NCBI GenBank assembly: GCA_051294905.1
Contig: CM119373.1
Coordinates: forward strand, 2,544,001 to 2,608,000
DNA length: 64,000 bases
Origin: Botryllus schlosseri
Taxonomy: Eukaryota
Reading direction: 5' to 3'
Below the pieces are notes generated by a model that was not told where the DNA came from, searched no databases, and saw nothing but the letters and a program-made list of their open reading frames with translations. This document shows positions 14,451 through 55,420 of this stretch, piece by piece. Both the position numbers and the translations under genes were made by a program. Position 1 is the first letter of the stretch; the number at the start of each line of letters is the position of its first letter.

Positions 14451-14452
14451 AA

Positions 14453-15680: not shown

Positions 15681-15747
15681 TTATTATTATTATTATTATT
15701 ATATTCTTTATTCACAGTAAAACTGGTAAATACACACATAATCCGGA
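15681..15747 (-). mobile_element. R4/Dong-like LINE 3' UTR stub, copy C, with (TAA)n tail
   Basis: Same terminal sequence as copies A and B. Confidence 0.75.
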
Positions 15748-24933: not shown

Positions 24934-25315
24934 ATTTAGACTATGTGCTAAGACTTCGAGGACTTGAATATTAAACTACTATATTCGAGTAAAAGTAGCA
25001 AAATGATGTATCCGGTGATGATGTAGAAGCTGCCACAGTAATGTCAATGCCATACGGTTCGCTTCACATCATTCTTTTATCAACAAGATCAATATATGTT
25101 CGGATGGAGGGTTTCCTATAATCAAAACTTATAACTAACCATATGTCATGATAATCAATGGAATTTATTCTGCTGGCATCATGCCGCCTTATAAAGTATA
25201 TTAGTAGCGCAATTAGGCCGGAAGAAGCCGTGATGAAGTACAGGCGTGTTTTATAGGTGGAAATCTCCCCTTTCCGAAAACTGTATAACAGGCTTCACAT
25301 TTCCATCACTCCACA
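24934..25315 (+). pseudogene. Orphan promoter/TSS of the secreted peptide gene family (no coding exon follows)
   Basis: Collinear with the reverse complement of 51315-51730, including CTGTATAA (TATA-like) and CACTCCACA (putative TSS). Replaced immediately afterwards by a hAT remnant (25316-25935). Confidence 0.8.
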
Positions 25316-26993
25316 ACAAATTAGTATTTCTTTATGGGGCGCTGCTGTATGCCTCTGCGGTTTGCCTCTGCTGTTCGCATCTGTACTTTGGGGCTCAGAT
25401 TACAAGGAACACTATATCATATTAAAATTGGAAATAAACTCGCATCGAACAGCGCCTGGCGCGAAGAAAATTTCAAGAATAATTGTAATCTCTCATTGAT
25501 TAGGGAGTCAATTCGTATTCAATCTGCATATTGAGGTCCGCCAATACATCCTACTTTAATTAAGTGTCGACGGCCGCATAATTTTCCATCCACTGCCACA
25601 GTTTGGCCACCCCTGAACTGAAGAAATGATAAATCGTTTTCTAAGCGTCTCGGTCTTGGCAGTGGTGGGCCATTCCACGTCAAGGCAATATGCCCATTCA
25701 TGTCGGAAAATTATTCCTTCATGGAATGATATTACCGTCGCCGAAGCCATGTCAGCTAGTGAGGAATAGTGATATTGGGCACAGGACAATATCTTACTTT
25801 GAACAACATCAGCGATATGTTAAAACTGAAATAAATTTCAGCATTTCTAAATGCTTTACTAAGCGTTCTGCCGAAATTTAAATCAGGTCGCAGGACTCAA
25901 AATGTGACCTCGCGGGCCGCGTGTTGGTGACCCCTGCCCTAGGGCATTGGCCGTCAACCTTTCTTATGCCGATGTAAAGGCCGATGTAAAATATGACTAA
26001 GCTGGCGTGCCAAACATTTCTCATTTTGTCATTAGTATCGTTTCAAGCAATGAATTCCACCTACCGCCTATCAGTATATGGCAACGGCAATATGCTTTTT
26101 TATTAATATTTTATTGTGAGCTTAAAAAGACAGCCGAAAATTCTGAATATCCTGACCGCGGAACTTTGGATGTAGTTCCGGCGCATTGACGTAGCCAGGG
26201 GTCAGCCACATTTTTCGAAGATCTTCTTTATGACCATTAAATATAATATTTCGTCTAGATCTATTTTTCTAAGCACTTCGCGCGATTTATTGTCACTTAA
26301 CCTCTTGCTACTAGTACCCCCTGAAAAATAAAAATCTGCCAAATTTACTGAATTGAGTCCGACTATATTCACAATTATGAGAGAACGTGTCGCCCAACAT
26401 GTGACTTCGCGCCTGCACTCACTCGCAGAAAGAGGGTCGGTGATGAAACCTTCGCATAAAATGATAGACGCATCTTCGATATTTATATGTCTAAGCGCTG
26501 AATAATCCTGTCCTTGACAGGTACGCGTGTGTATTCGTCTTTCTGGTTCACGTTACAATCAGTTGCTGAATCTTCATAAAGCGTGATCTGTTACAGAAAC
26601 TTACCTAATAATGGAAACAGCAATGGACTGGTTTGTGCAAATGCAAACAGGATGTCAGAAGCAGTATAAAAGAGACATGTCATTTACGAGGTGGTTTGAG
26701 TTCGGTTTAGTACAGTTTATTAATAACATTTTTATCGTTTCAAAACATCACAAGACTGCGATACATTGAAAAGATAGGAAGGTGTCGAAGCAACTTGGAG
26801 CATCTTTTCAGATCAGACACGCATCTCGACCTACGCGATGTAAAGAGGAGGCACGCACATTGCACACTGAATGAAAAGTGAAGAAGTTAACATAAAGGGA
26901 CAAGCGACAAAATGAGATGGCACGTTGATCGCAAAAGATATACCAGTGCCATTAAAAACAATACTCGCTTATACCTCCTGCTCGTAGTAACCT

Positions 26994-27242
26994 TTAACCT
27001 GATGACCCTGCTGTTGATGACTTTTTGCTATGTCGTTTTTCTTTGGTGTCGTCATAGTATCCTTTGGCTTCGTCCTCATCCATATCGTAATACACGCGTT
27101 CTTCATCGCCATAACGCCTTCTACTGGCGACGTACCTCCTCCTTCTGGCATAATAGCGGCGGCGCCTGGCCCAGAACCAGGCCTCACCTTGCAGGATAAG
27201 CCCGATTACGACAAGAAGTATCAGAGTGGTTCTCAGCTGCAT
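26994..27242 (-). CDS. Secreted styelin-like Arg/Tyr/Trp-rich peptide precursor, copy A (82 aa; tail frameshifted)
   Basis: Signal MQLRTTLILLVVIGLILQGEA, core WFWARRRRYYARRRRYVASRRRY(G), acidic tail with RVYY and KGYY. Paralogous to 50983-51201 and 54507-54809. 5' UTR intron at 27250-27315. Confidence 0.88.
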   Translation of the reverse strand: MQLRTTLILLVVIGLILQGEAWFWARRRRYYARRRRYVASRRRYGDEERVYYDMDEDEAKGYYDDTKEKRHSKKSSTAGSSG

Positions 27243-27315
27243 GTTAAATCTGCAGAAGATGAAATGAATGTTAATATGGCAATGTAGGAGTATGGAATTC
27301 GCAATCCAGTCTTAC

Positions 27316-27770
27316 TTTGGTATCGTCCCAGTGCTATCGTAGCTCTCGATCGATGTGGAGTGTTTGAAATGTCAAGTTCTTCATATACTTTTCGTAATGG
27401 AACGAACTCCACCTCGAATTACTCCATCACTGCCGTATCCGGCCTCTTCGTTAATTATTATTTTACATTATGAGACTGGATTTTGTCAACAACAGAACTT
27501 CCGATGATTGCCATGGCATTCCATTACCATAAGTTTTGATTATAGCAACCTCTCCATTCGAATGTATATTGATCTTCATGATATGATGTTGATACCCCAT
27601 TCGAGAATAATATAAAGAATGATGAGAAGCTGAGCGGATGGTAGGCCTAATGGTATTATGTGGCAGCTGCTACACTATCCGCGGATGCATCATTTCATGC
27701 TTTCACTTGAATACCACTATTTAGTTAGTTAGACAAACCCTCGATTCCATTGCATATAGACTAAATTGAA
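27316..27770 (-). promoter_or_regulatory. Non-coding exon 1 (about 27316-27361) and promoter of copy A
   Basis: Exon 1 CACTCCACATCGATCGAGAGCTACGATAGCACTGG..ATACCAAA|GTAAG is conserved in all three genes. TATA-like GTATATGAAG lies about 25 bp upstream. Confidence 0.75.
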
Positions 27771-28282
27771 AATGAAGATTGTCGTTGAGTAATGTTGATA
27801 GCCTGGAGGAAGTTTTATCCATATATTTATGTGCGTATTGATATACATACGATGCGTTTCGGCACTAGGTTTCATATTCGACATTATACTCTCATGGCGA
27901 TGAGCGGCTATGAGTGATCATTGCATTGTTGCGAAGCCGTTCCTAACATTTGTGAGCATGAGCATACTCGTAATTTTACATGATCCATATATCTATAATA
28001 TTCATAGTATAGGGGCGGTGGTTCTTCTTCTGTGACATGCACGCCACTAGTTGTACGCGAGAGCTTCTCATGTTGTCTTAATTCACAGTCCTTCACAGCA
28101 TATAAAACCATTATAAATACACGGTGTAAGTAATTTTTTCCAGTTGTGCAACAATTTTCCGTTATTGGTAATGATGATCAGTCTTAAGTTGGTTTCAGGA
28201 TTGGTGAGGCCGCGTGCAATATGTAAATATGGCGCAGTAAACTCAATATACTTTCGTAAATTCGGTTTTGCGCCACCGGATC

Positions 28283-29634
28283 CCATAGCAGCTGCATGAA
28301 TCCTGCATTCGATTACATTTACTAACCCAAGTAAAACCGACGCACTCATATTCAAGCAAAATCCTTTGTTGTCAGTCAATCATTTTACAGCTCAAGGTGA
28401 AGATAGATGCAAGAAATGAATTACAGATAAAAGTAGATAGAATACGTTTAACGCTATAAGGCACGGGGAACGAACTGAAAACCACGAATTTTAGTAAGTG
28501 GTCCGATTCCAAACGGCCTAAATGCCGGCTGGCATGAATCGGTAACGTGATACATATATGCACCATGCGTGATCAGCATAGTGAATACCTTTAGATACGG
28601 GGTTCACAATTATCGCTTTATATAGCGGGCACGAATATGAGATCATATATTTATGTTAGCAGATTACCGCAAACTGCAGGTTTTACTGGGAGTATTAGGC
28701 TACATTGAGTCATATGGAAGATATTGCCTACTAATGACTCCGAAAGGTCTTTCACCTTCATTTTTCATGATTTTATAGCCCTTGGTAATACATTCAAGAA
28801 AATTTATTACAGGTAGAGGGCTCCTTCCTCTACCTTGCTACGATATTGTGTGGCGATGATGCAATTCAATTCAATTGATTGCTAGAGTTTTTATCATTTC
28901 AATACACAACAAGACTGCGATACAGCGCAAGATGGGATGGTGTAGAAATGACTTGAAGTAGTCTTCGAAGTCGGACACCCACCCGACATGCTACCTGAAA
29001 AGTATGGATTAGTTGCATTCAGTTTGAGTTCCCGGCGTAGTCTTGTGTCTATCTGAGATATTTTGCTTGGTGTTGTTTGTCGCCAACATCAATTAGTTCG
29101 TAGCACTGTAGTACATGTACTGCAACAAACCTATGGTTTCTGTTTTGAAAGCTTTCTCAAACTTTTATTATTAACACCCGCCTCCTTTTATCATTTATTC
29201 CATGGGGATATACAGTATTTGTGAATGTGACTTTGGGTGATGCATGACGTTTGTTTCCGGCAAACTTATAGTCTTTTTGTCCAATAATTGCATGCGTTAG
29301 ACCAGTGTTTTTTTACCGGTTTTCCACGGAACATCTGGGGTTCAGTGGGGCAATGTTTCCTTTTTATTTTTCACGAGTCTGCACGGTATCACCGACTCAC
29401 TGCGCAGTCCCTTGAACAAAAACAAGAAAAAACACAAATGGGTCGTCACCCTGATGCAACTCCCGATTTCCCGAATTTCGCGAAACTCTGATGTTTGCAG
29501 CGACGGACTTGAGATTTTGTTACCGCATTTTGATACATTTTCTGCAAAAAGGGATGGTGTCGCTTCGTCTGATAATTTTCTTTCGAATCACAGGTGGATT
29601 TTGTGGGTGCGGCGCACATTTTTCTCTGCGCGCA
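28283..29634 (+). repeat. Segmental duplication, copy 1 (copy 2 at 37072-38544)
   Basis: Collinear direct repeat with scattered substitutions and indels. Both copies share the embedded LINE fragment and hAT end. Confidence 0.9.
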
Positions 29635-31085
29635 AACTTTGTCAGCAGTTCGAGCAGTGTGGCGAGATAGCGCAGTGGTATAATCCGTGGCTGCAACAAC
29701 AATAGGTGCGGGTTCTAGTCCGCCCGAGGTCGACTTCAGAATTCCTAAACCTAAGTGTAGGAGGTTTATCTAAGCGCCGCCTCGCCACCTCATCCTCGTA
29801 ATCGGTGTCTTACAAAAAGCCGATGAGTGGCCGTGCTATAAGTCGGCAGTTACGGAATAAAAATGAAGGATATCGGTCTGGTGTAAATAACCATTGTAGT
29901 CGACAAGCACCATGAATACCACCAAAACAAACATGAATTTTTTTTATTTTAACGAAATCTGGCCCTATGAATAATTTCAGTAGTTACATGACGCATTATA
30001 GAATAAATAATTAAAATTCGTTTTAGTACGACGAAAGATGCTTTCCTACATTCTCGGGTAGAAAGTGTCTGTCCTTACTAAGTAGCTTGCCTAGAACGGA
30101 GAAAGAACGTTCAACAGCAGCAGTTGTTGGCTGACAACAATGAAGTTGTGCGTACGCTACTGGTGACACACCGCGTTGCTTTATTCTGACAATGTTGTCT
30201 ACATCACAATTTTTCATCATGTACTTCTTGATATAAGAACCAATGCCCACGCAGTCTTGCTTCAGTTATGATATTGCGGTACGTTGACCATAACACCATG
30301 TCAACCTATTTGTTTCATTTGACCGTTTATGATTCACAATAAGCAGACAATGGGCCGTCTACAACGGTAGGCCAATAAATTAAGCTACAGGCTGTAAAAT
30401 ATCGAAGGATGAATTCACCGACAGTTCATATTCTATGACACAAACGAAATGCAGGGGTCAAAAGATTTTTTACTTTGTAAACAGTTTTGAAAAATTTTTG
30501 ACCTAAGACTACAATTTTGCAAAAATGTTGACTTATTTTGACATGACCAAAAAACTGCCCTAGTGATAATACGTTCGTGTTTGCCATCACTGGTTACTGG
30601 TAATGAGGCCCGATTAGTAGTCGAATTGCGCCTGCTATGGTGGTAGGTCGTGTGCAGTGGCGTACGCTGGGTAGGTTGGGGTTTGAATTCGAAACCGCGT
30701 CCTTCTGGAATGCAAATTCTATCTCCAATACATATAAACTCATTTGCAATTAGGTAATTGGTGTCACGTGGTTCCATTTAGACAAGGTAATACCATGACA
30801 CTCTCATTTCTGAGCTGGTATATGGAAGGGAAGAGCAGAAGTCGCACTAATCTGCCATAAATATTCATTAAGGTGTTTTATTTTGAATGAAAGTTATATT
30901 TCATTAATTTTGTTCTTTTAATACTCTGTCGTTGCTTTATTTGGTGCACCAGTAGTCCATAGTGATGTCATAAATGTGGATTGTCATTGTTTTTCGTTTT
31001 ATGAGTCAGTGAAAATTTGGTGCTCCGTGAAGGCGTGCAGTTTAGCGCGACTGTTCCCCACGTTAGTAAAGGTTACGAACCACTG
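29303..31085 (-). mobile_element. hAT deletion derivative with a transposase C-terminal dimerisation fragment (about 30023-30260)
   Basis: TSD CGTTAGAC / CGTTAGAT. Translation QPTTAAVERSFSVLGKLLSKDR. Confidence 0.8.
29661..29933 (+). mobile_element. tRNA-derived SINE, near full-length
   Basis: A-box TAGCGCAGTGGT, B-box GGTTCTAGTCC. Homologous to 22504-22748. Confidence 0.8.
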
Positions 31086-31341
31086 CGTTAGATAAATGTG
31101 CCAAAGCTGTGTGTCAGTAAAGGTAGTGCTCGATGGTTTGTGACATTCAATTTTGTTTTTGAACTTGAGTTCAGTTTTCAGTATTAATATCAGTATTTTG
31201 GTGTAGGCTATTTTTTATTGTTAATGTTATTGTGGCATCACTTCTAGTTGGATATCAGCAATGAATAATTTGACCCTATTTTTAGCATTATTTAACGAGG
31301 CGCGACACTCGACCCATTGAACCTTTATGCGAATATGACCC

Positions 31342-34300
31342 ATGTATGTATGTATATTGTGGTTATGGTGCTTAGCAGCTACGGCCTTGTGCACCAGACC
31401 GAAGTGTTGTAGGCATGTGTACTAGATTCTACTGCTGCATTATAGTTGCCTCTCGGTCAGGAAAACATAATCGATCACAGGCAAAATTGTGTAAGGGTTG
31501 CCGAGAAGTGACACAATGTCTATGGGCACATTATTTCGTAGTGCAATGTCCTTAAAATAGTTACGCTGTGAGCTATATCGAGAACATTGAAACAAGAAAT
31601 GCTCAACCGTCTCTATAACGCCACATGTTGCACAAAGGCCATCGTCGTGACATCCAATTTTATGTAAGTGCCCGTTGAGTTTACAATGTCCAGTCTGAAG
31701 CCGTAACAATATTGCTGTTTCCCTTCTTGATAGTCCCAGTGGCTGCGAGATATCATGTGCGGCGTGAATTCGCTTGTAGATATTGTCTGAATCATTCGTT
31801 TCAAATTCGTTTTTCCATCTTTAGCGAGTCATATCTTTGATAATTATTTTGGCCTCTTGTAGGCAGAGTGGGATGTCACTGGATGATCGTTGTATTGGAA
31901 GCGTAGCCGCTTCCTTGGCGAGTTTATCGGCTATACCGTTGAATCCAATCCCGCAGTGACCTGGAATCCAAATAAATGTAATATTTATCCCAGCACGATC
32001 AAGATATCTGCACGAAATTAAAATATCCTCGACTATAGCGCGTGCATTACTGGTTTTACGAGTTTTGAGCATAGTTAAGGCGCTCAAACTATCTGATAAA
32101 ACTGCAATGCCGCAGGTCTGTATAGTTCCTCGGCGCACGACATCAATTATCCAATTAAGACTCTCGTTTATAGCGACTAATGCTGCTGTTAGGATCGATA
32201 TTCTGACATTAAGGGTGGATTTATGCGAAAACTCGAATGACTTAATATAAAAACCGGCACCACAGCCATTTACAGTCTTTGAACCGTCAGTATAGACGTG
32301 TAATCTATCCCTGTAGTTTGCGTATATATATTCTTCACTAGTTTGTTTGATGATTTCCGGGTGGTCTGATTTCTTGATCTCCCGTGAAAGACCTACGTCT
32401 ATAGTACATCCAGGATTTTCCCAAGGATCCATAGTCGATGGTCTTATTTTCTCAATGTGGAGATCTACGAGCCCGTTTCCTGTAAGCATGTTAAAGGTAA
32501 CAAAATTCTCAGAATCTGGGAAGATTTCTTGCCAGGCGTATTCGACCAGGGCTTCACAAGGGTTGTTATTTTGCGACTGTATTGATGCGCGGAAATTCAT
32601 GCATGCCTGGTAATGTCTTAAATGTATTGGTGCTTCGTCACACGAATGCTGAAGCGCGTATACGGGTGTCGAAGCCATAGCTCCCGTGCATATCCTAAGA
32701 GCTGCATTTTGTATCTTCTGGATACCCTGTGCCACGGACTTTGTTGACATCAAATATGCTTCGAAACCATACTCTATGAGTGGACGTATTAAAGCTCTAT
32801 ACAATGTAAGCAGGCATGACGTTGAGGCACCCCACGTCGTCCCGCACAATACTCGCAAGACGTTTAGTCGTTTTGCGCAACGTTCTGTTACCAAACGCGA
32901 ATGTGTTTTGTAGCTGAGTCGAGAGTCAAAAGTAATACCTAGATATTTGTGTTCCTTGTGTACTGGTAGAGTCGCGTTATCGATTGTTAGACACACTTCC
33001 GGCACCTTACGCCGTCTGGTAAAAATGATAGCCGCGGATTTGTTAACATTCACTCTAAGGCCCCATTTTTGGCACCAAACAGATATTTCAGTTAACGAGG
33101 ATTGTAGCGTGTTCAAAATACTAGGAATCTGTAGTCCAGACTCCCATACGCAAGCGTCATCCGCATATAGATTAATGTTGGACGCAATATTCCCGGGAAG
33201 GTCATTTATCAGTATCGAAAAAAGTAATGGACTCAGTACACTGCCTTGTGGCGTTCCATTATCGAGGACAAATGTATTTGAAAGGATTGATCCAATACGC
33301 ACTTGGAAGGTGCGGTCTGATAGGAAAGAGCATATCCACTGGAAGATATTTCCCGACAACCCGATCTTACGTAATTTGATTATAAGCGATTCTCGCCAGA
33401 CGCGATCGTAAACCTTCTCGAGATCTAGAAAAACTGCGGCAACCGTTGTCCTGTTCCAAATCGATTTGTACACGTCATCGTGCAACGACAATATACTATG
33501 TCTGGTCGATCTACCTCTGCAAAAACCGCTTTGAGACACATGCATAATGTTATTTGTTTCTAGCCACCATTGTAATCGGTTGGCGATCATGCGCTCCATT
33601 ATCTTGCACAGATTGCTCGTTAGGGATACAGGTCTGTATGACTGAGATTTTTCTGGTGGTTTCCCCGGTTTGAGTATTGGGATGACGATGGCATGCTTCC
33701 ATGCTTCTGGACAGTGACCCCTCATCCACAATTTGTTCAAGGCTTCGAGTAGTGTGCCTAGACAGTCATCTGGAAGCGTCGATATCATCTTGTAGCATAT
33801 TCTGTCATAGCCAGGTGATGTATTCCGTCTTTTTTTTAGAATAGTAGTGAGTTCATTCAACGTGAACGGTCGGTTAATGCCCATTTCTTCAAGAGGCCGG
33901 TGATATGGTATGCCGTCTAATTCTGATCCGAGATTCATTTTGCACGCCTTCTCTTCTTCGGTCAGATTACTATTACTGCTTTTTGCAGAAAATGTTCTGC
34001 CTAGTTCGTTGGCCTTGTCTGTCTGATCTGTCAGTTCGATGTGGTCATCAGTTTTAATAACACGAATCTGATGTTGTATCTCCAGACATTGCCTTAATGC
34101 ATCTCCAGACATTCGCAAGCTTAGTGTTGTTATCTAATGAATTGCAGAAAAACCTCCAATGTGATCGTTTCGCAGACAAAATACATTTTCTTGCGGCTGA
34201 TCTTCTTTGCTTGAAAAGTATGATGTCATCCATGTTGAAAGTTCTTCTCATTTTCTTGAAGGCTGCTCGTTTAAGTCGAACAGCTTTTGCGCATTCCTCA

Positions 34301-35895
34301 TTCCACCAAGGGACCATCGTTTTCGACGAGGGCTTGGTGACTGGTATCGTTGTAGAGGCCGCTTCAATGATTGCCTTTGATATCTTTTCAACGGCTGACG
34401 TATCGGATGCATCGATTTGTTGAATTTCCGTTGGCATGTCGCTTGAAACCCTGCCCAATCGGCACGACGGAGAGACCACGAGGGAAAATGTGTCTGTATG
34501 GTCTGGTGCGGTACGTCAATTTCTGTGATAACGACGAAATGGTCACTTCCCAAAAGTCTGTCCGTAACCTTCGTTGTTGCACGATGGGCAATATCATTTG
34601 AGACCAGCACCAGATCTAATAGCGTCATTCTTCCAGTGTTTGTATGAGAGATATCGAGTCTGGTTGGCTGGGTTGTGTTAGTAACCACGAGGTCCATGTT
34701 TTGAATGACATGATAAATATGCCTGCCTGTTGTATTCATATTTCGACTTCCCCACATTGGGTGATGTGCGTTGAGATCCCCAACCACTATGGATTTGTTA
34801 TCACATATTTGGAAACATCGGATGCACTGGGAACGGGATAATCTTCTGTTAGGCGGAATATATAGGCTACATTCATGACGATTGTATCGGCTATTTTTAT
34901 TGCCTGTGCTTCTATCGGCTGGACTGCAGGCAACGATACTTCGCAAAACGGAATGCTGTTCTTAATAAACATACACACCCCTCCACCGTGAATGTCTCTG
35001 TCTTTTCTTATTAACGTGTATTGGGAAAATCGTGGGTTATATTTACTAATCAGATGCGTTTCTTGTAATGCTATGATGTCAGGTAGTTTTTCTAGGCTCT
35101 CTATGTATTGCTTCAGTTCATTTATTTTCCTGTATACTCCACGACAGTTCCATTGACATATAATTAGGGGTTTGAAGGTGTACCATAAGTCAGGTCCATA
35201 GCATCGTTGGAGTGTTGCGGACTTTGCGAGGTCAATGCTTCCGTACGATCGCGGTTATTGCTCGCCTCAGGAGCATTCATCAATGGATTTCTATATTCTG
35301 CGGTTGATGCATTTGTATCGATAGTGTTACTTTGGCTCGGACCGGTGCGATTTTTTGATGAGGTCATTCTTAATCGACGTCTACTGGCTGCATTTTCCGC
35401 TTCCGTTGCAGGTTTATCATTGGGGTTGGATGTCTGACTATTCCTAGAGTTTGATTCAGCACCAAAAACCGTAAAACCAAGTTTATCTCCAGCCGACTTT
35501 CTGACTATTTCTTCAATGTTTATTTCCTTTTGTTCAGAGAAAGCCAGTAGAGTGTTTTTCATCACTTCAGCTATGAACGTGAAAAATGTTTCCGTTGTAA
35601 TAGTGATCTGTTTGTTGGACGCCGAGATGAGATTGGGGTCTGTTCCAGGCCGTTCACTGATCGGGTTATTGTTGGTTTGGTGCAAGGAAGGGTATTGCGG
35701 TAACGGCGGGTAGGAGAGGGGGTTCTGATATATATTCTCATGCGGAGTGTTTGTGTGTGTGGTAGCGGTTTGCAAGTTGTTTGCATGCAAGGTCTGGTCC
35801 TGTTGTTGCGACATTTGTCTAGCAGTCCAGTAATCAACATTCGAGTTTGCCATAATGTATTGGATACGAGCTTCTTTTCTATATCTTTATTTCCG
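31342..35895 (-). mobile_element. I-group (I/Nimb-like) LINE: ORF1 remnant + frameshifted ORF2 (APE-RT-RNase H-CCHC)
   Basis: APE motifs QWNCRG, LQET, GDLNAHH, GSDH. RT motifs YRPVSL, GTPQGSVLSP, YADD. RNase H motifs YTDGSK, WIPGHCG...ADKLAK. Terminal C-x2-C...H...C and a (TACA)n tail. Several frameshifts. Confidence 0.93.
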
Positions 35896-36101
35896 CGTCC
35901 TCACGGCAGCCAGTTCAGCCCAGAAGAGAGCATGCATTGTCATGGGTCCACCAAGTGTCCATTTAACGTAGTCGAAGCTAGACACTTGGCGGCCCTAGAA
36001 ATAACAGTACCATTACAATAGTAACTAACCATCATCACATACACCCATAATAGGTGGGCTGTCACACTTAGTTTGCTCAAAAATGACCCAGAACGCCAGA
36101 C

Positions 36102-41355: not shown

Positions 41356-41574
41356 GTTTATAGTAATACATGGAAGAACCAATATTATTGACAGAATCCA
41401 TTCTCATAACTTAACAACCAGATGCATATAGAAACGGGATACAGAAAGTAAGCTCCCAAGAAGATGAATCGACTATCCTATAGAGCAGTGTTTCCCAACC
41501 TTTTTCGACTCATCGCCCCTATATCAAGCTCGTCACAAATTTTTGCCCCAATACTTACGGATTCGAAAAAGAGG

Positions 41575-44058: not shown

Positions 44059-46723
44059 TAGGGTGGTCCTTAAAAATCGAATTTTGGAAAGTTGTTTGTC
44101 TGACCCTGCCAAAACGTTCTTTTTGGTTATAAAACACTCTGCGTAAAATTTTATTGATATTCAATAATGTTTAGAGGTGGCTCAATGGATCATTATTTTA
44201 CCCATATTAGGTATAGAACACATATGGTCACTTCATAGCTACTATTGGGTCAACGCTTGAAAGCCTGGATTACCTCGTCTGGGTATTAGCTGATCATTGG
44301 CAGGAGTGCCATGATGACCAATCGACCACGCCAATCAACCCCACAGACGGACACCACAGTTACCCCGGTACCATCTTCTGCACTGTAATTTTAGATATCT
44401 CGACAATATTTGCATGATACTTCTGCAGCTGCTTCAGCAGCAGCTTAAAACCTTCACATTGTTGTTGGCTGTTGCCCACGCTTCTACGAGGATGCGAAAT
44501 AGAATATGCAGAGTTTCCGCAACCCTCGATGCTAGCTCGATAACTACTTAAACTGTGAACTAAACATCCAGACCTTTGAAAGTTTAGATTACTTTCGCCA
44601 TTCATATGTCTTGGCACATGGCTCCGGGACTTTCAAAGTGGATGCCTCGAAAAGGGACAGCGCCAAGGAAATTAAAGGCCAGCTCCAGTAGTTCTCTGTA
44701 ATGATGTCTCGACTGAGTGACTTTCACAGCTGTCTCCTATACATTAGCCATCTCAGTTGTCATGTCAGCCACAGCATCGAATACATAATGATCAGTTGAC
44801 GAGTCCTTAAATGTGTTATGGTCAATAAGACGTCATCCTCTTTTGAAGCACTTGAACAAGAGACCATCAGGAGCAGATGTGCAAGGGCTTCCGAAAAGAC
44901 TGATACATACCGGCCAAGCATCTGCTCTAAAAAAATCCGGTTCTTTAGTGCCGACCAGCTCTTTTTCTTTAAACTCCCGTCTTTCAGAATATAAAAGATA
45001 GCCTCAGCTTGCGCTTTTCATATCCTAGATTCTACAGGGGCGGGCAACTTCTGCAGTCCGCCGGCCGGATATAGGAAAATTAAGTACTTGACGGGCAGGA
45101 TTGCTGAATCGATACATTATTCGCCAATTTATCCACATATACAAGGAATAAATCGTATTTGATGAATGTATTTTAACGACAGCAATGTCACTTCAAAGCC
45201 ATTTCCCGCCGATAATGACGAAGACAATGTGGATTTGAGAATAGCGTTGTCATACAGGCACCTTATCCATGTCTGCTTCTCCCTGATCAATCAACCTACG
45301 GTGCAATCCTTAATTAAGATTTCAATGCGTTCGATAAGCCCAGTACCCCGAATTTACCAAGATATCAATTCAGTTGGGTTGAGTAGGTGACAAGATAGCA
45401 TCGTTGTTCAACTGTGTGGCCTAATTATTCTCGATATTGAATTCATACGGCCCGCGTCCTCTACGAAATTTGAAAAGTGGCCCACGACCCATTTTAAGTT
45501 GGCGATCCCTGGCATAAGCGGTGTCTTGCAAAAGCCTAGAAGTGTGCAGCTACAAGTCGGCGGTTACGGACTCAAAAATAAGAAATATCAGCCTGTTGTA
45601 AATGACCATTGTTGTCGACAAACACCATTATTACCACAAACGACACTAGGGTTGAGTGAATCGTAACTACCGATAATGCAAGTCTTCTCGTTTCGACGAA
45701 CTGACGTGTAAGCTCCACTCTCGCACGCTGCGCACACACGTATATACTAACATACAGTCATTAAAATTTGTCGTAGTAAGCAAGTATTGGGGAATCTCGG
45801 CAAACTGGGCCGCGGGCCACATTATCATGTAAGACGGAAAACTGTCGGCGCGCCGGACAAAATCCCTTCGCGAGCCGGATCCGGCCCGCGGGCCGTTTGT
45901 TGCCCGCCCCTGTCCTAGATGGTAATAACTTTGGGACTGAGTAGTAGCTGTTATTGGCCGGTATATGTCACTAGCATAGGCAGTCCGTCAAGAGTCTCCA
46001 TCCTAGTGACATCTGAAATTAGTTTGCCATCCCCGTGCACAATGAATTGAAACTGTGGGTCTAACTAATATTTAATTTCTTCGGAAATGATTCTACTATT
46101 GACTATTAAAGGAACTAATAAAGCGTGTAATTATCAACTTGAAAAACATTCGGTAGAAGACTTTATTCAACTTTCCAACGACGAAATCACCAATTATTTC
46201 AAGAAACTCGTACTTTTAGATGTTTTTCTTGAATATCAGGATGCTTAGAAGAAGGAGCAACCTAGTTTCATTGCCGCAAAAACTTTTATGATCACATTGG
46301 ATGTCACCAATCACCAGGATTAGAGTTCCATTGCCTCAGTTGAGAAGTTTTCTGGTCTTATCACAAAGGACAAGAAGCAACTGCTATTTGCAGTTGGACT
46401 TTTTGGTGACCAACGCAAAAAAGCTCCCTAACACCCCGAAGCTGACGTTACTTGGGAACGGCAATTGCTATTGGTCATCATGACACCCGAGCCACTTAGC
46501 AGCTATTACCTAGGCGACGGAATCCAGGCTTAAACTTTGGTCAGAGATCAGCTACAGAAGTGACTTTTCGTGCCTTTTACTGCAAATGGGCAGAATTTCG
46601 GATCCATTGAGCCACCTCTGAACGTTAATGAATATCAATAAATTTCAAACAGGGTGTTTTTTAGCCTACAGGAACATTTTGGCCGGGTCAGACTAACAAC
46701 TTCTCAAACTAAGGAATACACTA
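44059..46723 (-). mobile_element. Decayed hATm-like DNA transposon with transposase pseudogene
   Basis: Imperfect TIRs of about 130 bp starting TAGGGTGGTCCTTA, perfect TSD ATGTATAT. Minus-strand remnants VHGDGKLISD...LPMLV and YRELLELA..FLGAVPFRGIHFESPGA...MAKVI...KVWMFSSQF. Confidence 0.78.
45035..45912. mobile_element. hAT MITE nested in the hATm-like element
   Basis: TIRs CAGGGGCGGGCAA / TTGCCCGCCCCTG. TCCTAGAT is duplicated on both sides, with 4 extra bases on the left. Confidence 0.8.
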
Positions 46724-47397
46724 ATGTATATATCTATCTGGTTGGTAGATCTTGTATCAAAGTGTTGAGCCAGCAAAAGATCTGCTCTTATCGGCTGAAT
46801 ATTTGAGGCCAGAGATTATTTTGAAATTCGTGATCCATCGTGATCCATATCTCTCCTATATGTCACAGGCAGTTGTAACATTTTCACCCCCATTGCCCCC
46901 AGTCGCCCTATTTGGTGTCCTTTCCCCTTGTTTCTCAAAATCGCCCACGTTGGGAACCACTGCTACAGAGGGCCCAAGATCAGAGTCTTTTTTTGGGTGG
47001 GAGGATCTTAAAAATGTTTCTTCGGTCCCGGTTACAGCACACAAACACATAACTGCACCAACCAAACAGTATTACAGGGCTGTTAAACACACGACGATTT
47101 CATCTGGCCCTGAGCTCACATTAGATATGGTCCAATTCATGACCTATGTTCCACTCCTGTATACAGTCGATGGGCAAAGCGTTACTAGTGTGACGTCATA
47201 TTGACAAATATTGTGTCCATACCTCATTGTATAACCCGCTAGTCGGCGCTAATGAGTGTCCGGAATTTGAGACACAAAAATGGTAACCCGATACTAGGTC
47301 CTGTCTAAAATCAAGAAGTAAAGTCACTTTCTGATATCGTCCTATTCCCCAGATTTGTTACGAATTTCAAAATCAACTCAATATATATATAAATATA

Positions 47398-47468
47398 TTT
47401 ATTATCGTACTACACTCATTTGTGTACGCGTAAGCCTTCACTTTGCTGTTGACTTTATGCTTGAAACT
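47398..47468 (-). other. 3' UTR exon 3 of peptide gene copy B, with AATAAA
   Basis: Acceptor ttttcAG at 47469-47470. Homologous to 55351-55420 (AAAGTCAA..GCAAAGTGAA...AAATGAGTGTA). AATAAA at 47398-47403. Confidence 0.7.
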
Positions 47469-47872
47469 CTGAAAACGACTGAATATTAGTATGCAATATA
47501 AACCTACATTAGGTAGAATTATTTTCTACTTGAACGCAATAACAAAATCCATACATGTAGTAAATTAACAAGATTGTGATGGGAACTGGTAGGGGTGGGC
47601 AATGGAAATATTTCTAATGGATTGAATGAAGCAATCTTTACCTTCACAGTTAAGAAAGATTTAGTTAGAGTGAACCGTAAGAGCGAACTATAAATTGGGA
47701 ATTGGATGTCACAAGCAGTATAAAGAATGAGAAGTTATCACGTTAATGTCAGGCTACTTAAAATATGTCGGTTCATATCCTCGTGCTCACTATTTCAATT
47801 GGTCGGTATAATTGATGAATGTAGCAGCATATAGCATCAGGATATAGCAGTCACAGTGACAACAACACTCAC

Positions 47873-47903
47873 TCATTCTTGCTGCTCGTAATAACCTTTA
47901 GCC
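47873..47903 (-). pseudogene. Displaced original C-terminus of copy B (AKGYYEQQE*), followed by a GTGAGT donor
   Basis: Matches the copy C ending AKGYYEE* GTGAGT. Separated from the rest of the gene by element 47904-50909. Confidence 0.85.
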
Positions 47904-48169
47904 CAGGGGTGGGCAAACCACGGCCCGCGGGCCGCACCGTTTTGCGCGGCCCGCGAGAGGCTCACGAATCTTATTTAGAATATTGAAGAAATGCGCAGTG
48001 AAAATCTAATTTCTTCAGGGACTCGATTAAACTGTTTCTCATTTTATTTCACCATGATAATCATAAGTGATATTCTGACGAGTTTATTGTTATTTCACTG
48101 CTGGTACGATAGCCCGACCTCAATGCACACGCATTTTAAAAGGTTTCAATTGCTAAACATTACAGAAAG

Positions 48170-49435
48170 CAGAGGTGGTCAAAGCAGTAAAAAAAGCTAC
48201 TCGAGTAGAAGTAGAAGTAGCGACGGAAAAATCTACTCAAGTACAAGTAGAAGTACTTCTTCAATAAGCCACCTAAAACTACTTGAAGTAGAAGTAGAAT
48301 TAACTGACTTTAAATCTACTCAAGTAAGTAAGTAGTTTTGAAAACAGTCTTAATTCGTTCGCATGGACTGTCAAAAGCTGCGAATTGAGCTATGCGGCAC
48401 GTTCAGGGAGCTTGATTCGTATTGATGCATCCCAGGAGCTATCAATTTTCGACAGAATAAGTATTATTTCGCATCATGGGATGCAAATTATAGTATTGAT
48501 ATGAAAATGCGATACTTATCCTTTGTTTACTAGAACACCCCGTTTTTATAGAATATAATGGGATGGCGCCCTACCCCACATAATAAGGCCCCAAGTTTAG
48601 GCGAAGAGCAATACGTAGAAGTTGTATCGGATACGGTTACATCACTTTGCGTGATTAGTATACGTTAATAACAAATATTGTGGATCGCAAAAGTTATATT
48701 TAGTGTAGGCTAGCTTTATTTTCGAAAAATGGAGGCAATACTACACTTGTTTGTACGCTTTAACATCTATGAAAGTAATTAGAACTCAAAGTATGATACT
48801 CGCAATTAAAATGAAATACAAATACCACTTCTAAAAAGCGGAGAATATATTTGCTGTATGTTGTCCATAAAGCTTCAAAGGTCATCTGCTAAAACAGGTG
48901 TAACGTTAAAAACAGCTGGATTTTCCAGATTATCAAGACACGTAAGGGGCTGCTAGATTACAATATGATAGGTAATTGCTAGATTTCGAAACGGTAGTTT
49001 CAAACGTTGTGGTGGGCCATATATACTGTGATGAAATATTTGATATGGGCGACAATGCGGTGTGAGAGGAACCAAGCAATCCGGTACCTAAATTACATTC
49101 ACTGATACTTTCATGAAAACATATTTGTCACTCCATCGCTACTATGCGCGAAGCGCAATAAAATTTCTGGGCTTTTCTTGACTTTTATGAATATTAAATG
49201 TTGGTACTCCATGAAAACAGCCCGGAATTCCTCAAGCTATCGTTCGTATTGGGGGATTAGACTACTTCTAATTGACAAACTGAAAATAGCGAAAGTGAGT
49301 AAGTAGATCACAAAATATTACGAAGTAGAAGTAGAAGTAGAGAAAATCAGATCTACTTGAGTAAGTACCAGAAGTAGAGGAAAACTACTTGAGTACTTCC
49401 AAAAAGTAGAAGTTCTTCGTTACTGACCACCTCTG
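48170..49435. mobile_element. CAGAGGTGGTCA family element (nested)
   Basis: Perfect TSD ACAGAAAG. Confidence 0.92.
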
Positions 49436-49473
49436 ACAGAAAGTCAAAATGGGAATGACTTTCGGATCACAAG

Positions 49474-49989
49474 TAGGGCTGGGCAAAATCGAGTGACTGA
49501 GTGATTCGATTCTGAATCACGTAATATGCTTCGGGTCGAGTCGAGTAATCGAGTATCGCTCATTATGACGTCATAACAGAATGATATACGTCAGAGTTCA
49601 AATCTGTACCGTTTATGCCACCACAAAGAATAGAATGCCAGATGTCCATCTCATAAAAGATACTTTGGTATTTTTCGGCCATACCGATTTTATTCCACTT
49701 GGTGACAATGTTGTGGGATAATCATGACATCGGAAATGTGCTACGACCAGTAACCTTCGTAGCATTATACCATGTGTTTCGTATGTTACGATATCTCAAA
49801 TCAGGGTTTCAAGGCTTCAACAGTGAAAATTGGTATCGAAACTATATTTCTCGTTGATAAATTACCTTTCAGTGGTGAGAAGAGTATAATTTCAGTACTC
49901 GAAATAATCGTATTTTACTACTCGACTCGAATCATTAAAATCAGTACTCGATTCAGATTGGAGTACTCGAATCATTGTGCCCAGCCCTA
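49474..49989. mobile_element. TAGGGCTGGGCA family MITE (nested)
   Basis: TIRs present; homologous to 15064-15604. Confidence 0.85.
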
Positions 49990-50982
49990 ATCAAGAGTGT
50001 CATTTTGCATTGGCCACTCCTATGCTGTACATTGGAAAAACCGATTCGCGCGTGTTATAGGTAGATTCGTTCTATCAGCATTATGTGTGTTGGAGTTGAA
50101 TCCAAAGTAGAATCAGCAAATCTATAAACAGATCACTGCTCACAGATTCAAATCTCCATCCTGTTCTAAGAATCGGGACAACCGACTTTCATCACTAGTT
50201 TTGAAAATCGGTTATATTTAGGTTAACCAGCAGCTTATGAAATCTCGCCATTGTTTCTGACGCGTGTACCATATGCTCAAATCAATGGTTGGTTTGCTTT
50301 AAATAAAAATATGTAAAATTTCCACATCCCCACTATATAATCAAATATCAATATTGCGTTTTGGTTTATAATCCCAATTTTATATAGTGCGGCAAGCGAA
50401 TGGATTTAGATGTTGAATGCTCGGTGCTCGAGTGTTTTTCCATACAAACTGGTTACTGATGAGGACGATCCACTTATATATCATCTCCATATTTCCTCGG
50501 TCACTATATGACAGTAGTTTTTAAACTGGGGGACGTGAAAGCATCTGAAAGGAGGCGCGAAGGCGCAGTAAACTAAAAAAAAATTCGATTTCCTTCCAAT
50601 TTCATGGTTTTTGCTTTGTCTATTGTCCATATTTCATATTTGATATCCTTCAATGCCATCAAACTATCCGTTGGGATTGCAAGCATTCTGATTCCTCTCT
50701 TGGATATTTTGTGACGTCACGATAAAGGGGACGCGAAATTTTTCACTATTATAAAGGAGGGCGTGTCTAGTAAAGTTTAAGAACCACTGCTATATGATTA
50801 AATAACAATATTGCCTTTTGGCTAATAATCTCAATTTAATATAGTACGGCCCACGAATGGGTTTAGATGTTGAATGCGGCCCGCGAGCCAAAAAGTTTGC
50901 CCACCCCTGCTCTAGCCCCATCGTAGTATCGCTTGGATTCGTCATAGTATGCTTCCATACCGTAGTAACCTTTCGATTAGTC

Positions 50983-51201
50983 TTAGTATCCTTCGGATCC
51001 GTCTTCATCCATTCCGTAATGCCCCCTCGATTCGTCTTCTTCCATTCCGTAGTAGCCGCGTTCCTGGTCGTAACGCCTTCTCTTGGCTACGTACCTCCTC
51101 CTTCTGGCGAAATAGCGGCGGCGCCTAGCCCAGAACCAGGCCTCACCCTGCAGGACAAGACCGAGTACGACAAAAAGTATCAGAGTGGTTGTCATTTGCA
51201 T
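50983..51201 (-). CDS. Secreted styelin-like Arg/Tyr/Trp-rich peptide precursor, copy B (72 aa; tail truncated by premature stop)
   Basis: Start MQMTTT at 51201 after acceptor ttcgcAG (intron 51209-51275). Core WFWARRRRYFARRRRYVAKRRRY. The tail continues past TAA codons at 50983 and 50977. Confidence 0.82.
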   Translation of the reverse strand: MQMTTTLILFVVLGLVLQGEAWFWARRRRYFARRRRYVAKRRRYDQERGYYGMEEDESRGHYGMDEDGSEGY

Positions 51202-51275
51202 GTTGAAGCTGCGAAAAATCAGATGAAAGTTATCACATGACCTTGACAAATATGGAATTTGCGATCCAGTCTTAC

Positions 51276-51730
51276 GTTGGTATCATTCCAGTGCTAACGT
51301 AGCTCTTGATCGATGTGGAGTGTTTGATATGTGATGTCCTTATACAGTTTTCAGAATGAGATTTCCACCTATAATTACGCTTGTACTTCATTCATGCTTC
51401 ATCGGCATAAGCGCGCTATTAATATTTTACTTATAAGGGTGCATCCTGCCAACAAAACAATTTTCATTGATTATTATGGCATATGGTTGGTTGTAAGTTT
51501 TAATTATAGGAAACCCTTCATCCGAACGTATATTCATCTCGATGATATGATCGGATGTTGATACGCTATTAGTTAATAAACGGATGATTAGAAGCGAACA
51601 GTATGGCATTGATATTTTTGTTGCAGCTGCTACATAGGCTAATCACCGGATACATCATTTTGCTACTTTTATACTTGAATATGATAGTTTCATGTTCAAG
51701 CCCCCGATGTCATTGCATATAATATAAATC
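51276..51730 (-). promoter_or_regulatory. Non-coding exon 1 and promoter of copy B
   Basis: Conserved exon 1 with GTAAG donor, TATA-like CTGTATAAGG. About 400 bp aligns with the other copies. Confidence 0.75.
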
Positions 51731-54014
51731 AGAGGTCTCGAAATCAAATATGCTAGCGGGTCAATTTCCTAGTTTTTGAGGACGCCGCGGGCCGCATCAT
51801 AAGTATAATAAGGGTATTGAATGTATTATTTCCAAGTAAGCCTTATTTGACGGGACCTGACAGACTGGAATTCATCGAACATCGTCAAAATGTAATATAT
51901 TCATGCATGGCACAAAAACAAATTTCTAGTATTAGAATAAAACTGTTTTTGTGCTTGGCATAATTTGTTAAAATAATAAGTTCTAAATACCATGCGAGAC
52001 GGCAAATGCATCATTACATCGTAAAAGCTGTTACGTTTTGATACTGCCGCCAATGTTCCCTCTAAGCTGCAAATGTGCGCAATTGCGCAGTGCTGTCACG
52101 GTCTCTGCGCACAGAAAATATAAGTTGCGCACAAAAAAACCCGAAGCGATGACCTATCATTTAGTCGTTACGCATTGTTGTCTGCAGTGAGTTGGTGAGT
52201 GCGCGCAGACTCGTCAAAATTAGTGGGAACATTGATTGCAGCTATAGTGGATATTTGGTGTGTCATATTTATAGGAAGAATATATTAGTATTGACCAAAG
52301 ATTAATTTGATATCATAGCATTTGCGCAGTGTAGCCTAATCCGGGTTTCTGGTATAGTCCTGATAAGCAGGCGATTGTTCATGTCATTGCCAAACCAAAT
52401 TTAATCAGCGTTAGATGTGACTTCGATTATTGGAACAGACCGATAACAAATGAAATATAATAACTATTGTGCCAAAATAATAGCATTGCTTTTTAACCTT
52501 TATAGCAATCGCACCTCTTGTGCTTTAAAGAAGATTTCTCGTACCCTAACACAATTTCCAATGGTATTAAAATCAACCGGCCTATTCATAAAAATTCGGG
52601 CGCGGCGCAAACATTATTTTTCAGCCGATAAATTAACCCCGAAATTATTCCCCTTTTTGTTGGTTTGCAAAACAATTTCAACTTCTAGATAGCAAAGAAT
52701 TATTAAATCAATCTAAAGAAATAAAAGCTGTGCTGCTATTCGATATATTTTTAGAACAGACTCGCGGGCTACTCATCTGGTCGTCGCGGGCTACCTTGGG
52801 TCCGCGGGCACTATGTTGGTGACCCTTACAATACTGCATTCTGGGGAAGATGTTCCTAACATTTTGAATAACAACCCCTTCTTGAAGGTGTACCTGCTTT
52901 GCATTAGAAGAAATGTGTAAAAATAAATTTGTAACGTGAACAAAACAGACGAATTCACACACCAGCATAATGTAGAGTCCTTTGTTCAGATATGATGAAT
53001 GTATTCAGTCCACCGAGAGTCCGAGACACACAACTCAGAACAACACGCATGTGCACGGCTGGGCTGGAAAAGGCCAGAAAGACGATCTCATGATTACAAG
53101 AAACCACGTGTTGCGATCATGAAATCAGATTATATAGAGAAGAAGGTTTACAGCAGCAGCACCACAGCTACGAAATTCGTAATTATTGATTATACATAGA
53201 ATATAGTAATTAAAGTGTTGCTCTGGGATTACAAGACTAGCTGCCAATCAATTTATGAGACCAAACGCTGTCCACAAGTACTGGCGCATGAACATAGGAT
53301 GAAACGCAAATATTCACACTTAATTTGCACCTCGAAGAATTAAACATGGAAATTAAGTTCTTGTTGTTTGCGGCATTCATGGTGTTTCTCGACTACTATG
53401 GTCATTAGCACCAGGCAAATTTTCTTCATTTTCATTCCGTAGATGCCGACTTCTATACTTTTATAAGACACCGCTTATACGGAAGAGATGGCGAGGAGGA
53501 GCCTAGACACCTCCAACACTTAGGTAGGAATTCTGGAGTCAACCTCGGTCGGACTGAAACCCGCAACCCATTGATGTCGTAGCTGCGGCGTAACGCATGT
53601 GCAATCATTAAAGAGCCGCAATCAAAGGCCGAAATAGCCACATGCGGCTCGCGAGCCGCAGCTCGCCCACGCCTGCTACATAGCATACGACCGCATTCCG
53701 GCGGAGAATTGTGATGGCCCGTCTCGACGTCATATACTCATGTTAAATTAGTTACTGAAAACTTCGCACTGCGGAGAGGCCCTTGTGGGGTTCGGTGCCA
53801 TCACTGATTTCTTGAAATATTGCTTGTGTATAGAAGTTTTCAACTGTACTTGCAGAACACCCCCTCAGGCTTACTATCTATGCTCCAATATCGCGAGCAT
53901 TAGGGCGAGGTATATCGTGGGTATTAATCTCTACAGAAATGCGTTGTGAAAATTCCCCTAATTTTAGCAGCAAGGCGTAAACGTTTATCTCTGTGTAGCA
54001 GTATGCTCGACTAA

Positions 54015-54429
54015 TCAAGTGAAACTAAACAAAATCAGGCATCTGATGATGCTGTAGCAGCCGCCACAGTAATATCAACTACGGTGCGCTTCCTTCTGAA
54101 TCCTTTGTTCAGAACATGATTCGCTAATGAAGTACGAACATACGGTGTTATGATTGAAATCAATGCAGACTCGGTAGTAGGGTTTCATATAAAACTATTT
54201 AGAGAGAATACACAATGAAGATCATCGGAAATACTTTTGTTGACATAATCTCGTTTAATATAGTAAAATATGATTAGCGCGATAACGCCGGGTGTTGCTG
54301 CGATGAAGTATAAACAATTTCCGACAGTTTGCTGTGGGAACAATTCCATCCAACATCTATATAAGGAGTTTCATATTTTAGCCACTCCACATCGATCAAG
54401 AGCTACGATAGCACTGGAACGATACCAAA
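54015..54429 (+). promoter_or_regulatory. Promoter (TATATAA at about 54358) and non-coding exon 1 (about 54383-54429) of copy C
   Basis: TATA box about 25 bp before the conserved CACTCCACATCGATC. Intron 54430-54499 (GTAAGA...TTTTTGCAG). Confidence 0.8.
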
Positions 54430-54506
54430 GTAAGAATATAGACTGCGAATTCAATACTTTGTTATGGTGATATGATAACACTCATCTTGTTTTTTGCAGC
54501 TTCAAC

Positions 54507-54809
54507 ATGCAGACTAAAACCACTCTGATACTTCTCGTCGTAATCGGGCTTGTCCTGCAGGCTGATGCCTTATGGTGGTCAAGGAGACGCCGTTATTACG
54601 CCAGGAGAAGGCGTTACGACCAGGAACGTGGCTACTACGGTATGGAAGAAGACGAATCGAAGGGTTACTACGGAATGGATGAAGACGAATCCAAAGGATA
54701 CTACGACGAATCGAAAGGTTACTACGGCATGGATGAAGACGAATCCAAAGGATACTATGACGAATCCAAGGGATACTACGATGGAGCTAAGGGCTACTAC
54801 GAAGAATAG
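54507..54809 (+). CDS. Secreted peptide precursor, copy C (100 aa, intact): signal + LWWSRRRRYYARRRRY + acidic tail with 7 (K/R)GYY units
   Basis: Hydrophobic signal ending A-D-A, conserved gene structure across paralogs, repeats differing mainly at synonymous sites. GTGAGT donor directly after the TAG. Confidence 0.92.
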   Translation: MQTKTTLILLVVIGLVLQADALWWSRRRRYYARRRRYDQERGYYGMEEDESKGYYGMDEDESKGYYDESKGYYGMDEDESKGYYDESKGYYDGAKGYYEE

Positions 54810-55350
54810 GTGAGTATAGTTATTACAGTGACTGCTTGCTATATTCCTCAATATTACCTACCAATTGTAATAGGGAGCATGGGGACTTATTTTACGTAAC
54901 CTGACATCAACCTTCGATATAGTGTCAATAAGGATTTGATCTTCCACTTCTCCTACATTTTACGGAACAGTGGATGATAAATTAATCAAACCAAGTGACA
55001 TACGCCATTACCTAAATTTAGGGTAGTCTTAGAAATAATAGATTTTCACATTTCCAACCACCATAAATTATTTCACCGAGACCGGAAAAATATTCTTCAA
55101 AATTTGTTACTATCGTCGGGACTATTCACGTGAACTCGAATATATTAATCTTGATCGACAATTAGGATACATATGACCCCCATCAATTTTCGTTCCGAAA
55201 ATGCGTAATTTCTAGCGAATCAAAACTTAGACAATATGCAGTATGCCTACTTATTGTGGCTTGTAAGATGTAGATTTATGCATGAGTCGGTAAAGACTGA
55301 CAGAGTATCAACATGAGTATTACTGATCATTGATATTTTATAATTTTCAG

Positions 55351-55420
55351 ATCCTCAAGACCAAAGTCAATGGCAAAGTGAAAATCTACACACATATAAA
55401 AATGAGTGTACTATAAAAAT
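55351..55420 (+). other. 3' UTR exon 3 of copy C (3' end approximate)
   Basis: Acceptor aattttcAG at 55349-55350. Homologous to copy B exon 3. Confidence 0.65.

Follow-up and report, generated by a model that had tools for sequence, protein, structure and literature searches.

Genes for short arginine- and aromatic-rich secreted peptides in Botryllus schlosseri, probable host-defence prepropeptides of ascidian type

Three paralogous genes and the intact copy

A 64,000-nucleotide stretch of Botryllus schlosseri DNA (assembly GCA_051294905.1, contig CM119373.1, positions 2,544,001 to 2,608,000 of the forward strand), hereafter the window and numbered from its first letter, contains three paralogous open reading frames (ORFs), g1, g2 and g3, which encode precursors of 72–100 amino acids (aa). 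g1 and g2 are 64–78% identical to g3. Each precursor opens with a hydrophobic 21-aa leader whose last residues are A-x-A or G-x-A, called as a signal peptide by hydrophobicity and the -3/-1 rule, followed by a core of 16–23 residues with 8–11 Arg, 5–7 aromatic residues and a net charge of +8 to +12, and by an acidic C-terminal tail. The order signal (by this rule of thumb), cationic region and anionic proregion is present in all three genes, and the core/proregion boundary carries an acidic residue in 3/3 window genes and in 11 of the 14 outside relatives described below. A preliminary description, made from the sequence alone, had placed three such ORFs here, and they are present at those places; it also termed the core W-rich and poly-Arg, of which the Arg part holds while the cores are Arg/Tyr-rich with one or two N-terminal Trp. 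The DNA likeness of the three genes spans a non-coding exon 1 of 41 nucleotides (nt), a GT..AG intron 1 of 70 nt (g3), 67 nt (g2) or 66 nt (g1) and about 400 base pairs (bp) upstream; sequence alignment thus bears out the common exon, intron and promoter described earlier, with the intron 1 coordinates exact. Signal and core are under mild purifying selection, with a ratio of non-synonymous to synonymous changes (pN/pS) of about 0.5. A six-frame profile search of the window found no fourth coding copy, the next match having an E-value of 0.038. g3 is the sole intact family gene in the window, organized as follows.

53997–54388 (+): promoter, TATA box at 54358; head-to-head with g2
54389–54429 (+): non-coding exon 1, 41 nt; start site from adaptor-bearing reads
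54430–54499 (+): intron 1, 70 nt; seen in RNA
54507–54809 (+): ORF, 100 aa
54507–54569 (+): signal peptide, 21 aa; hydrophobicity and -3/-1 rule
54570–54617 (+): cationic core, 16 aa with 8 Arg and 5 aromatic residues; Arg-run-Tyr end before Asp
54618–54809 (+): acidic tail, 63 aa, net charge -14, seven K/R-G-Y-Y units; the stop codon abuts the splice donor
54810–55350 (+): intron 2, 541 nt; seen in RNA
55351–55440 (+): non-coding exon 3, end approximate (run X19: about 460 reads at 55427, about 3 at 55460)

RNA reads of four runs (X1, X17, X19 and X23), three of them chosen by species label, aligned to 50500–55900, which holds the 5′ part of g2 and g3, define the g3 transcript as three exons spanning 54389–55440 and driven by a TATA promoter. 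Intron 1 of g3 is spliced out exactly in 1,110 reads of X19, 19 of X23 and 54 of X17, and intron 2 in 504, 0 and 803 reads, respectively, while intron 1 of g2 (51209–51275) is spliced out in one X1 contig; three of the junctions predicted from the sequence are thereby seen in reads or a contig. The g3 start at 54389, 31 nt past the first base of the TATA box, is marked by an adaptor-like loose end, which we take to be the template-switch oligo, in 2,751 reads of X19 and 35,357 of X23. These adaptor-bearing reads begin on genomic sequence, and the loose ends listed include no trans-spliced leader. The aligned reads, which include some repeat-derived ones, number 23,848 of 12.9 million (X19), 221,372 of 9.98 million (X23, 2.2%) and 7,478 of 22.2 million (X17), and depth reaches thousands at g3 against 1–13 at g2. 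Most coding reads match g3 only partly, 94% of them in X19 and 93% in X23 running on into unlike sequence, and the loose ends reveal at least three other exon 2 starts as well as tails that join exon 3 after differing numbers of units. Further expressed alleles or paralogues, either of which fits these reads, therefore exist outside the window, and most reads aligned to 50500–55900 derive from such absent variants.

Damaged copies, a transposon and promoters without genes

The other two genes lie on the reverse strand and are both damaged, g2 by an insertion in its last codons.

51317–51732 (−): g2 promoter, TATA box about 51346
51276–51316 (−): g2 non-coding exon 1; the lone spliced contig reaches upstream to 51419
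51209–51275 (−): g2 intron 1, 67 nt; spliced out in the X1 contig
50910–51201 (−): g2 coding region, ORF 51201–50983 (72 aa), followed by decayed tail units as far as the insertion
47904–50909 (no strand): insertion in the g2 last codons, 3,006 bp, with nested repeats
47390–47903 (−): displaced g2 3′ end, with last codons, stop 47875–47873, intron 2 and exon 3
27357–27766 (−): g1 promoter, TATA box off the pattern found in the other three copies
27316–27356 (−): g1 non-coding exon 1, by homology to g3
27250–27315 (−): g1 intron 1, 66 nt, GT..AG, from sequence
26994–27242 (−): g1 ORF, 82 aa

The tail of g2 contains two in-frame stops, the premature first one at 50985–50983. The 3,006-bp insertion ends in perfect inverted repeats of 15 bp and is flanked by a target duplication of 8 bp (7/8 match), hallmarks by which we presume it to be hAT-like. 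Beyond it, the displaced end of g2 retains intron 2 (47872–47469, 404 nt) and a non-coding exon 3 from 47468 that is 74% identical to that of g3 over 85 nt. In g1 the family-type end, with the last GYY unit and the stop at 26971–26969, lies in another frame, the shift falling between about 27050 and 27000; an assembly error could be an alternative cause of this frameshift. The donor after this stop is GC, and an exon 3 homologue for g1 was not detected in the window. The case for birth-and-death turnover is stronger than first claimed, with g1 and g2 damaged and a transposon splitting g2, and it is a clean one, the transposon having been caught in the act of dividing a copy.

Two further promoter remnants accompany the genes.

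24931–25316 (+): orphan promoter, TATA box about 25282, start-site homologue 25313
59610–59699 (−): promoter fragment without a gene, resembling the distal portion of the family promoter (nhmmer E 1.7e-9)

The orphan has neither exon 1 nor coding part, a repeat beginning at about 25366. It aligns to the g2 promoter at 74% over 425 nt (E 4.5e-76), and all six pairs among the four promoters score 63–331 in local alignment, compared with at most 35 in 183–190 random window segments per pair, so the four promoters are related beyond chance and the earlier call of a promoter without a gene is borne out. For the 59.6-kb fragment, DNA self-comparison gave no match from the other three promoters. A short block at 54053–54069 whose core resembles an E-box, about 330 bp upstream of the start, is kept in the four promoters and in the 59.6-kb fragment and is a candidate regulatory element. 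An NF-kB-like site, present in g2 and the orphan, is altered in g3 and g1 and is not claimed as a family element. A signal-peptide-like frame at 53346–53590 was rejected as a fourth peptide gene; it belongs to a dispersed repeat with high X1 depth, and none of the four other copies in the window keeps the frame intact. This repeat resembles a short interspersed element (SINE) and occurs at 53361–53587, 22527–22742, 29690–29930, 45514–45645 and 63234–63364, the 53-kb copy mimicking a signal-peptide gene.

Outside relatives and known ascidian peptides

Searched with a profile built from the window's three proteins, a set of 1,098 candidates gave 3 matches; this profile alone picked out 9 proteins at E ≤ 0.001 from 1.84 billion representative sequences. 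Eight of these nine have the tripartite layout; the ninth, P0007, an 806-aa repeat protein, was dropped as a false match. Wider profiles gave 6 and then 14 proteins among 8,000 scored candidates, nine of the 14 being already in the profile, while P0003, P0014 and P0015 are independent matches of the wider profile below E 0.001. P0016 was dropped as a false match (no signal peptide, E 1.6). In all 11 relatives tested, which had been chosen as top scorers, the real score stayed above that of every one of 300 shuffles made within segments. The named relatives are uncharacterised Ciona proteins (the F6RKX5 cluster, XP_078492158.1 and H2XVB5), from C. intestinalis and, weakly, C. savignyi (P0017, E 1.9); the remainder are ENA or Logan records. 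The counts of relatives leave out the cluster mates P0004 and P0018–P0021, and P0017 is kept in the motif census. In 11/14 relatives an Arg run closes the core, followed by Ser or an aromatic residue and then by Asp, with or without a Gly before it, and D/E/P-V-S stands near the C-terminal end in 9/14, where it may reflect run-through of a phase-0 donor like that after the g3 stop. Judged by these relatives, the window is ascidian-type. Matches to anellovirus, circovirus and gyrovirus capsid families of Pfam lie below the cut-off and are compositional, and no Pfam family came near its curated cut-off for the window proteins or the 14 alignment members. The best scores in the ESM Atlas, 0.77 and 0.80, were below lead level, the PDB search gave nothing better than E 0.32, and none of 44 pattern matches in JGI metagenomes was confirmed.

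The layout of signal, cationic peptide and anionic extension attributed to ascidian precursors in the preliminary description recurs in the window genes. In the available text of the sources cited here, styelins and botryllin are likewise secreted precursors in which a cationic peptide precedes an acidic extension with the boundary at Asp (PMC9966394), clavanins carry an acidic C-terminal extension cut off before Asp (as cited in PMC7387483), and cleavage before Asp is reported for styelins and clavanins alike (PMC7387483). In contrast to styelins and botryllin, the window cores measure 16–23 rather than 32–37 residues, are Arg-based and have neither KHK nor an amphipathic helix; unlike clavanins, described as His-rich helices (PMC9966394), they lack His. 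The hydrophobic moment of the cores at 100 degrees is 0.08–0.17 and their mean hydrophobicity about -1, values that stand without a styelin control on the same scale. No styelin or clavanin Pfam match was found at E ≤ 10 for the three window proteins or the 14 alignment members, Pfam presumably containing models of both. The suggested styelin kinship is consequently not supported as family membership, with KHK absent from the three translations, no amphipathic helix and no Pfam styelin match. Nor are the genes botryllin, as had been proposed with reserve. The botryllin precursor runs to 158 aa, of which the signal takes 23 and the mature peptide 37, and it carries a KHK motif (PMC9966394), against 72–100 aa, a 21-aa signal and 16–23-aa cores without KHK here; the five published primers are absent from the window (best matches with 4–6 mismatches), and the three epitopes reach at best 5–6 of 12 positions in the window, with no match in the three genes, so that length, signal, motif, primers and epitopes all speak against identity.

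The closest counterparts are the Ciona peptides KH.C1.640 and KH.C7.94, which share with the window genes a signal, a core of Arg runs and aromatic residues, an acidic tail and a low hydrophobic moment (PMC7387483). The core of KH.C1.640 has an N-terminal Trp-Trp and ends in Arg-run-Tyr-Asp and that of KH.C7.94 ends in Arg-run-Phe-Gly-Asp, like the window genes. P0011, of the F6RKX5 cluster, matches the profile (E 4.4e-4) and scores above each of 300 shuffles, although low complexity limits what this implies; compared by eye, its core end and tail are shared with KH.C1.640 of Table 1 in PMC7387483. For a synthetic part of KH.C1.640 the minimal inhibitory concentration (MIC) lay below 3.125 uM against both E. 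coli and S. aureus, and lipopolysaccharide induces the gene in haemocytes; KH.C7.94 (charge +11, low moment) had an MIC of 6.25 uM. The synthetic fragments of the two peptides were lethal to these two bacteria and to yeast, but not to P. aeruginosa (PMC7387483). The available text of that paper neither treats the two as one family nor reports relatives outside Ciona. The window genes differ from KH.C1.640, KH.C7.94, F6RKX5, H2XVB5 and XP_078492158.1 in the regular Arg4-Tyr repeats of their cores, with up to 11 Arg, and in tandem K/R-G-Y-Y tail units that all five lack. Literature searches, with most subscription papers beyond their reach, found no description of the peptide family or of a tunichrome precursor gene, and motif searches found no paper printing the window peptides and one with KH.C1.640; the text considered here from the Botryllus atlas (PMC13635237), whose supplements might list one under a gene number, mentions no such peptide. 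The comparison supports precursors that would work like an ascidian antimicrobial prepropeptide while belonging to no named family, and the genes are a new variant of that prepropeptide type, not a new kind of system. At the least they define an abundant, as yet nameless group of secreted peptides, short and rich in Arg and aromatic residues, that is also represented in Ciona and in several other assemblies.

Probable function and its rivals

The family probably comprises ascidian host-defence (antimicrobial) prepropeptides cut before Asp, because the layout and the Asp boundary recur and the Ciona look-alikes are active and haemocyte-expressed. The precursor would enter the secretory pathway, and the acidic tail would neutralise the core and package it in granules, probably of haemocytes. 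A protease would then cut before the first Asp and free an Arg/aromatic peptide of 16–23 residues, which may bind and disrupt microbial membranes or polyanions; in g1 the Gly before Asp would provide a C-terminal amide. Duplication, transposon insertion and decay would drive the turnover of the family. In the earlier proposal of a haemocyte defence-peptide cluster the defence part stands as probable, by way of the tested, haemocyte-expressed Ciona look-alikes (PMC7387483), and the family offers ready candidates for antimicrobial tests. Several points weigh against the antimicrobial interpretation. The tested KH.C1.640 peptide ends short of the Arg-run-Tyr end common to the window genes, and KH.C7.94, physically the closest tested peptide, is classed as low in salt resistance (PMC7387483), a relevant weakness for a marine animal. 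Helical hydrophobic moment is all but absent from the cores (0.08–0.17), and with low-complexity sequences and the selection of top scorers, convergence might account for part of the likeness to Ciona. Runs of four Arg fit the furin consensus, so the core is perhaps cut up and not freed whole. A tail that merely neutralises leaves the conservation of GYY unexplained.

In g3, seven K/R-G-Y-Y units contain all 14 Tyr of the tail, none being left out of the count. The tail is built of 21-, 33- and 54-bp tandem repeats, and comparing GYY pairwise among the seven units gives 22 synonymous differences and 0 non-synonymous ones, with Gly in three synonymous states, the second Tyr in two and no replacement. 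At least three independent synonymous changes are needed, and the chance that three neutral changes are all silent is about (1.7/9)^3 = 0.006, an estimate from site counts. GYY is kept in four loose-end consensus tails of other variants, while the units of g2, a gene with scarcely any expression, have decayed. The motif is followed by Asp/Glu in 4/7 units and by Gly-Met in 3/7. The relatives P0001–P0004 carry a second Arg/Tyr module after a Lys-ending acidic spacer, in the place where the window genes have K-G-Y-Y; the sequences hint that the GYY units may be shortened copies of the core.

Tunichrome Mm-1, which is Gly-dehydroDopa-dehydroDopamine, has a Gly-Tyr-Tyr backbone; tri-Tyr gives rise to the An and Pm tunichromes, and Tyr-Tyr is the source from which botryllamides are ‘apparently derived’ (PMC3039461). 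Biosynthesis of tunichromes was called unexplored, whether ribosomal or non-ribosomal, in that 2010 review and was still among the unidentified pathways in a 2023 review (PMC10880069), and they have been termed likely fragments of DOPA (3,4-dihydroxyphenylalanine) proteins (PMC5465252). In g3 the tunichrome backbone tripeptide is under selection and has plausible cleavage sites on either side; in relative P0005, runs of four Arg enclose Tyr-Tyr-Tyr, and the Mm-1, An/Pm and botryllamide backbones (PMC3039461) thus occur as protease-flanked units in one or the other. The precursor may then also, or instead, be a ribosomal source of compounds of these classes, a proposal we regard as unlikely. 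Cuts after Lys/Arg and before Asp/Glu would release several Gly-Tyr-Tyr per chain and cuts in the Arg runs Tyr-Tyr-x; just as tentatively, the Tyr would be hydroxylated and the free C-terminal Tyr oxidatively decarboxylated to give phenoloxidase substrates. A g3-type precursor would in that case be a two-product defence polyprotein, again an improbable arrangement, with the Arg/Tyr core and up to seven Gly-Tyr-Tyr units giving catechol peptides. The concentration of the 14 Tyr in seven units that vary synonymously only, the retention of GYY in four other variants and its decay in g2, the backbone matches including that of P0005, the four units that stand before Asp/Glu, a cleavage context reported in ascidians, and a very high expression suited to a bulk granule product are all consistent with the proposal. 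K/R-G-Y-Y is, however, found in 0/14 outside relatives, so GYY is not the common purpose of the family. In the Ciona relatives, differing dipeptides separate the Arg runs and none is Tyr-Tyr, three of the seven units run on into Gly-Met, and a tripeptide match is weak by itself. Mm-1 is reportedly known from another ascidian, Molgula. Tunichromes and botryllamides are small molecules for which the literature consulted identifies no gene. The case for GYY is circumstantial, the motif being lineage-restricted and its Tyr serving equally well, perhaps, in Arg condensation, sulfation or cross-linking. If true, this would be a gene-encoded precursor for the tunichrome/botryllamide class, none having been found in the searched literature, and ribosomal synthesis would be shown; processing of the GYY units would give a direct handle on tunichrome biosynthesis.

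Cross-linking is also the core of a structural or adhesive alternative, quite unlikely in our estimate, by which core and tail form a DOPA-polyampholyte that condenses in granules, is released to tunic or wounds and is cross-linked by phenoloxidase. Very high expression and Tyr in both charged blocks would suit such a product; Halocynthia holdfast peptides of 1.5–2 kDa with about 50% DOPA, Glu/Gln, Ser and Gly (PMC13079984) resemble the g3 tail in composition, and tunic cross-linking by DOPA-protein fragments has been proposed (PMC5465252). Against it, the tails of most relatives are Tyr-poor, and the Asp boundary, being conserved, suggests that the precursor is cut into separate peptides. A polyprotein of neuropeptide or hormone type, or a sulfated-Tyr tail acting as a signal or protease inhibitor, is very improbable: the signal peptide, basic sites and tandem tail units would fit, and Tyr in an acidic context suits sulfation, but no Pfam match comes near a curated cut-off, no amidated repeated motif with dibasic flanks is present, and quick turnover of the genes, a unit number that differs between variants and transcripts making up as much as 2% of a library are commoner among products of defence or bulk type. 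That the ORFs arose by chance within a dispersed repeat, as the repeat-rich window might suggest, is next to impossible given abundant spliced RNA with a sharp start site, which already refutes it for g3, near-zero X1 depth in promoter bins where true repeats reach thousands, codon-level selection and the Ciona protein relatives.

Other features lie elsewhere in the window. A 218-aa short-chain dehydrogenase frame, largely one exon, lies at 9604–10260 (−) (Pfam adh_short, E 3e-53). A non-LTR (long terminal repeat) retrotransposon at 31440–35886 (−) is broken into several frames, which encode endonuclease, reverse transcriptase and RNase H domains. An element at 13008–18273 has 680-bp inverted arms, 99% complementary, and includes at 13538–15342 two similar nuclease-like frames of about 208 aa with only a weak Pfam match. 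Three copies of a 1.1–1.4-kb repeat, 76–81% alike, occupy 11248–12339, 41574–43041 and 48169–49436, one of them nested in the insertion that splits g2. The retrotransposon is flanked by a 78% duplicated block (28283–29632 and 37072–38544), possibly an older repeat into which the retrotransposon inserted.

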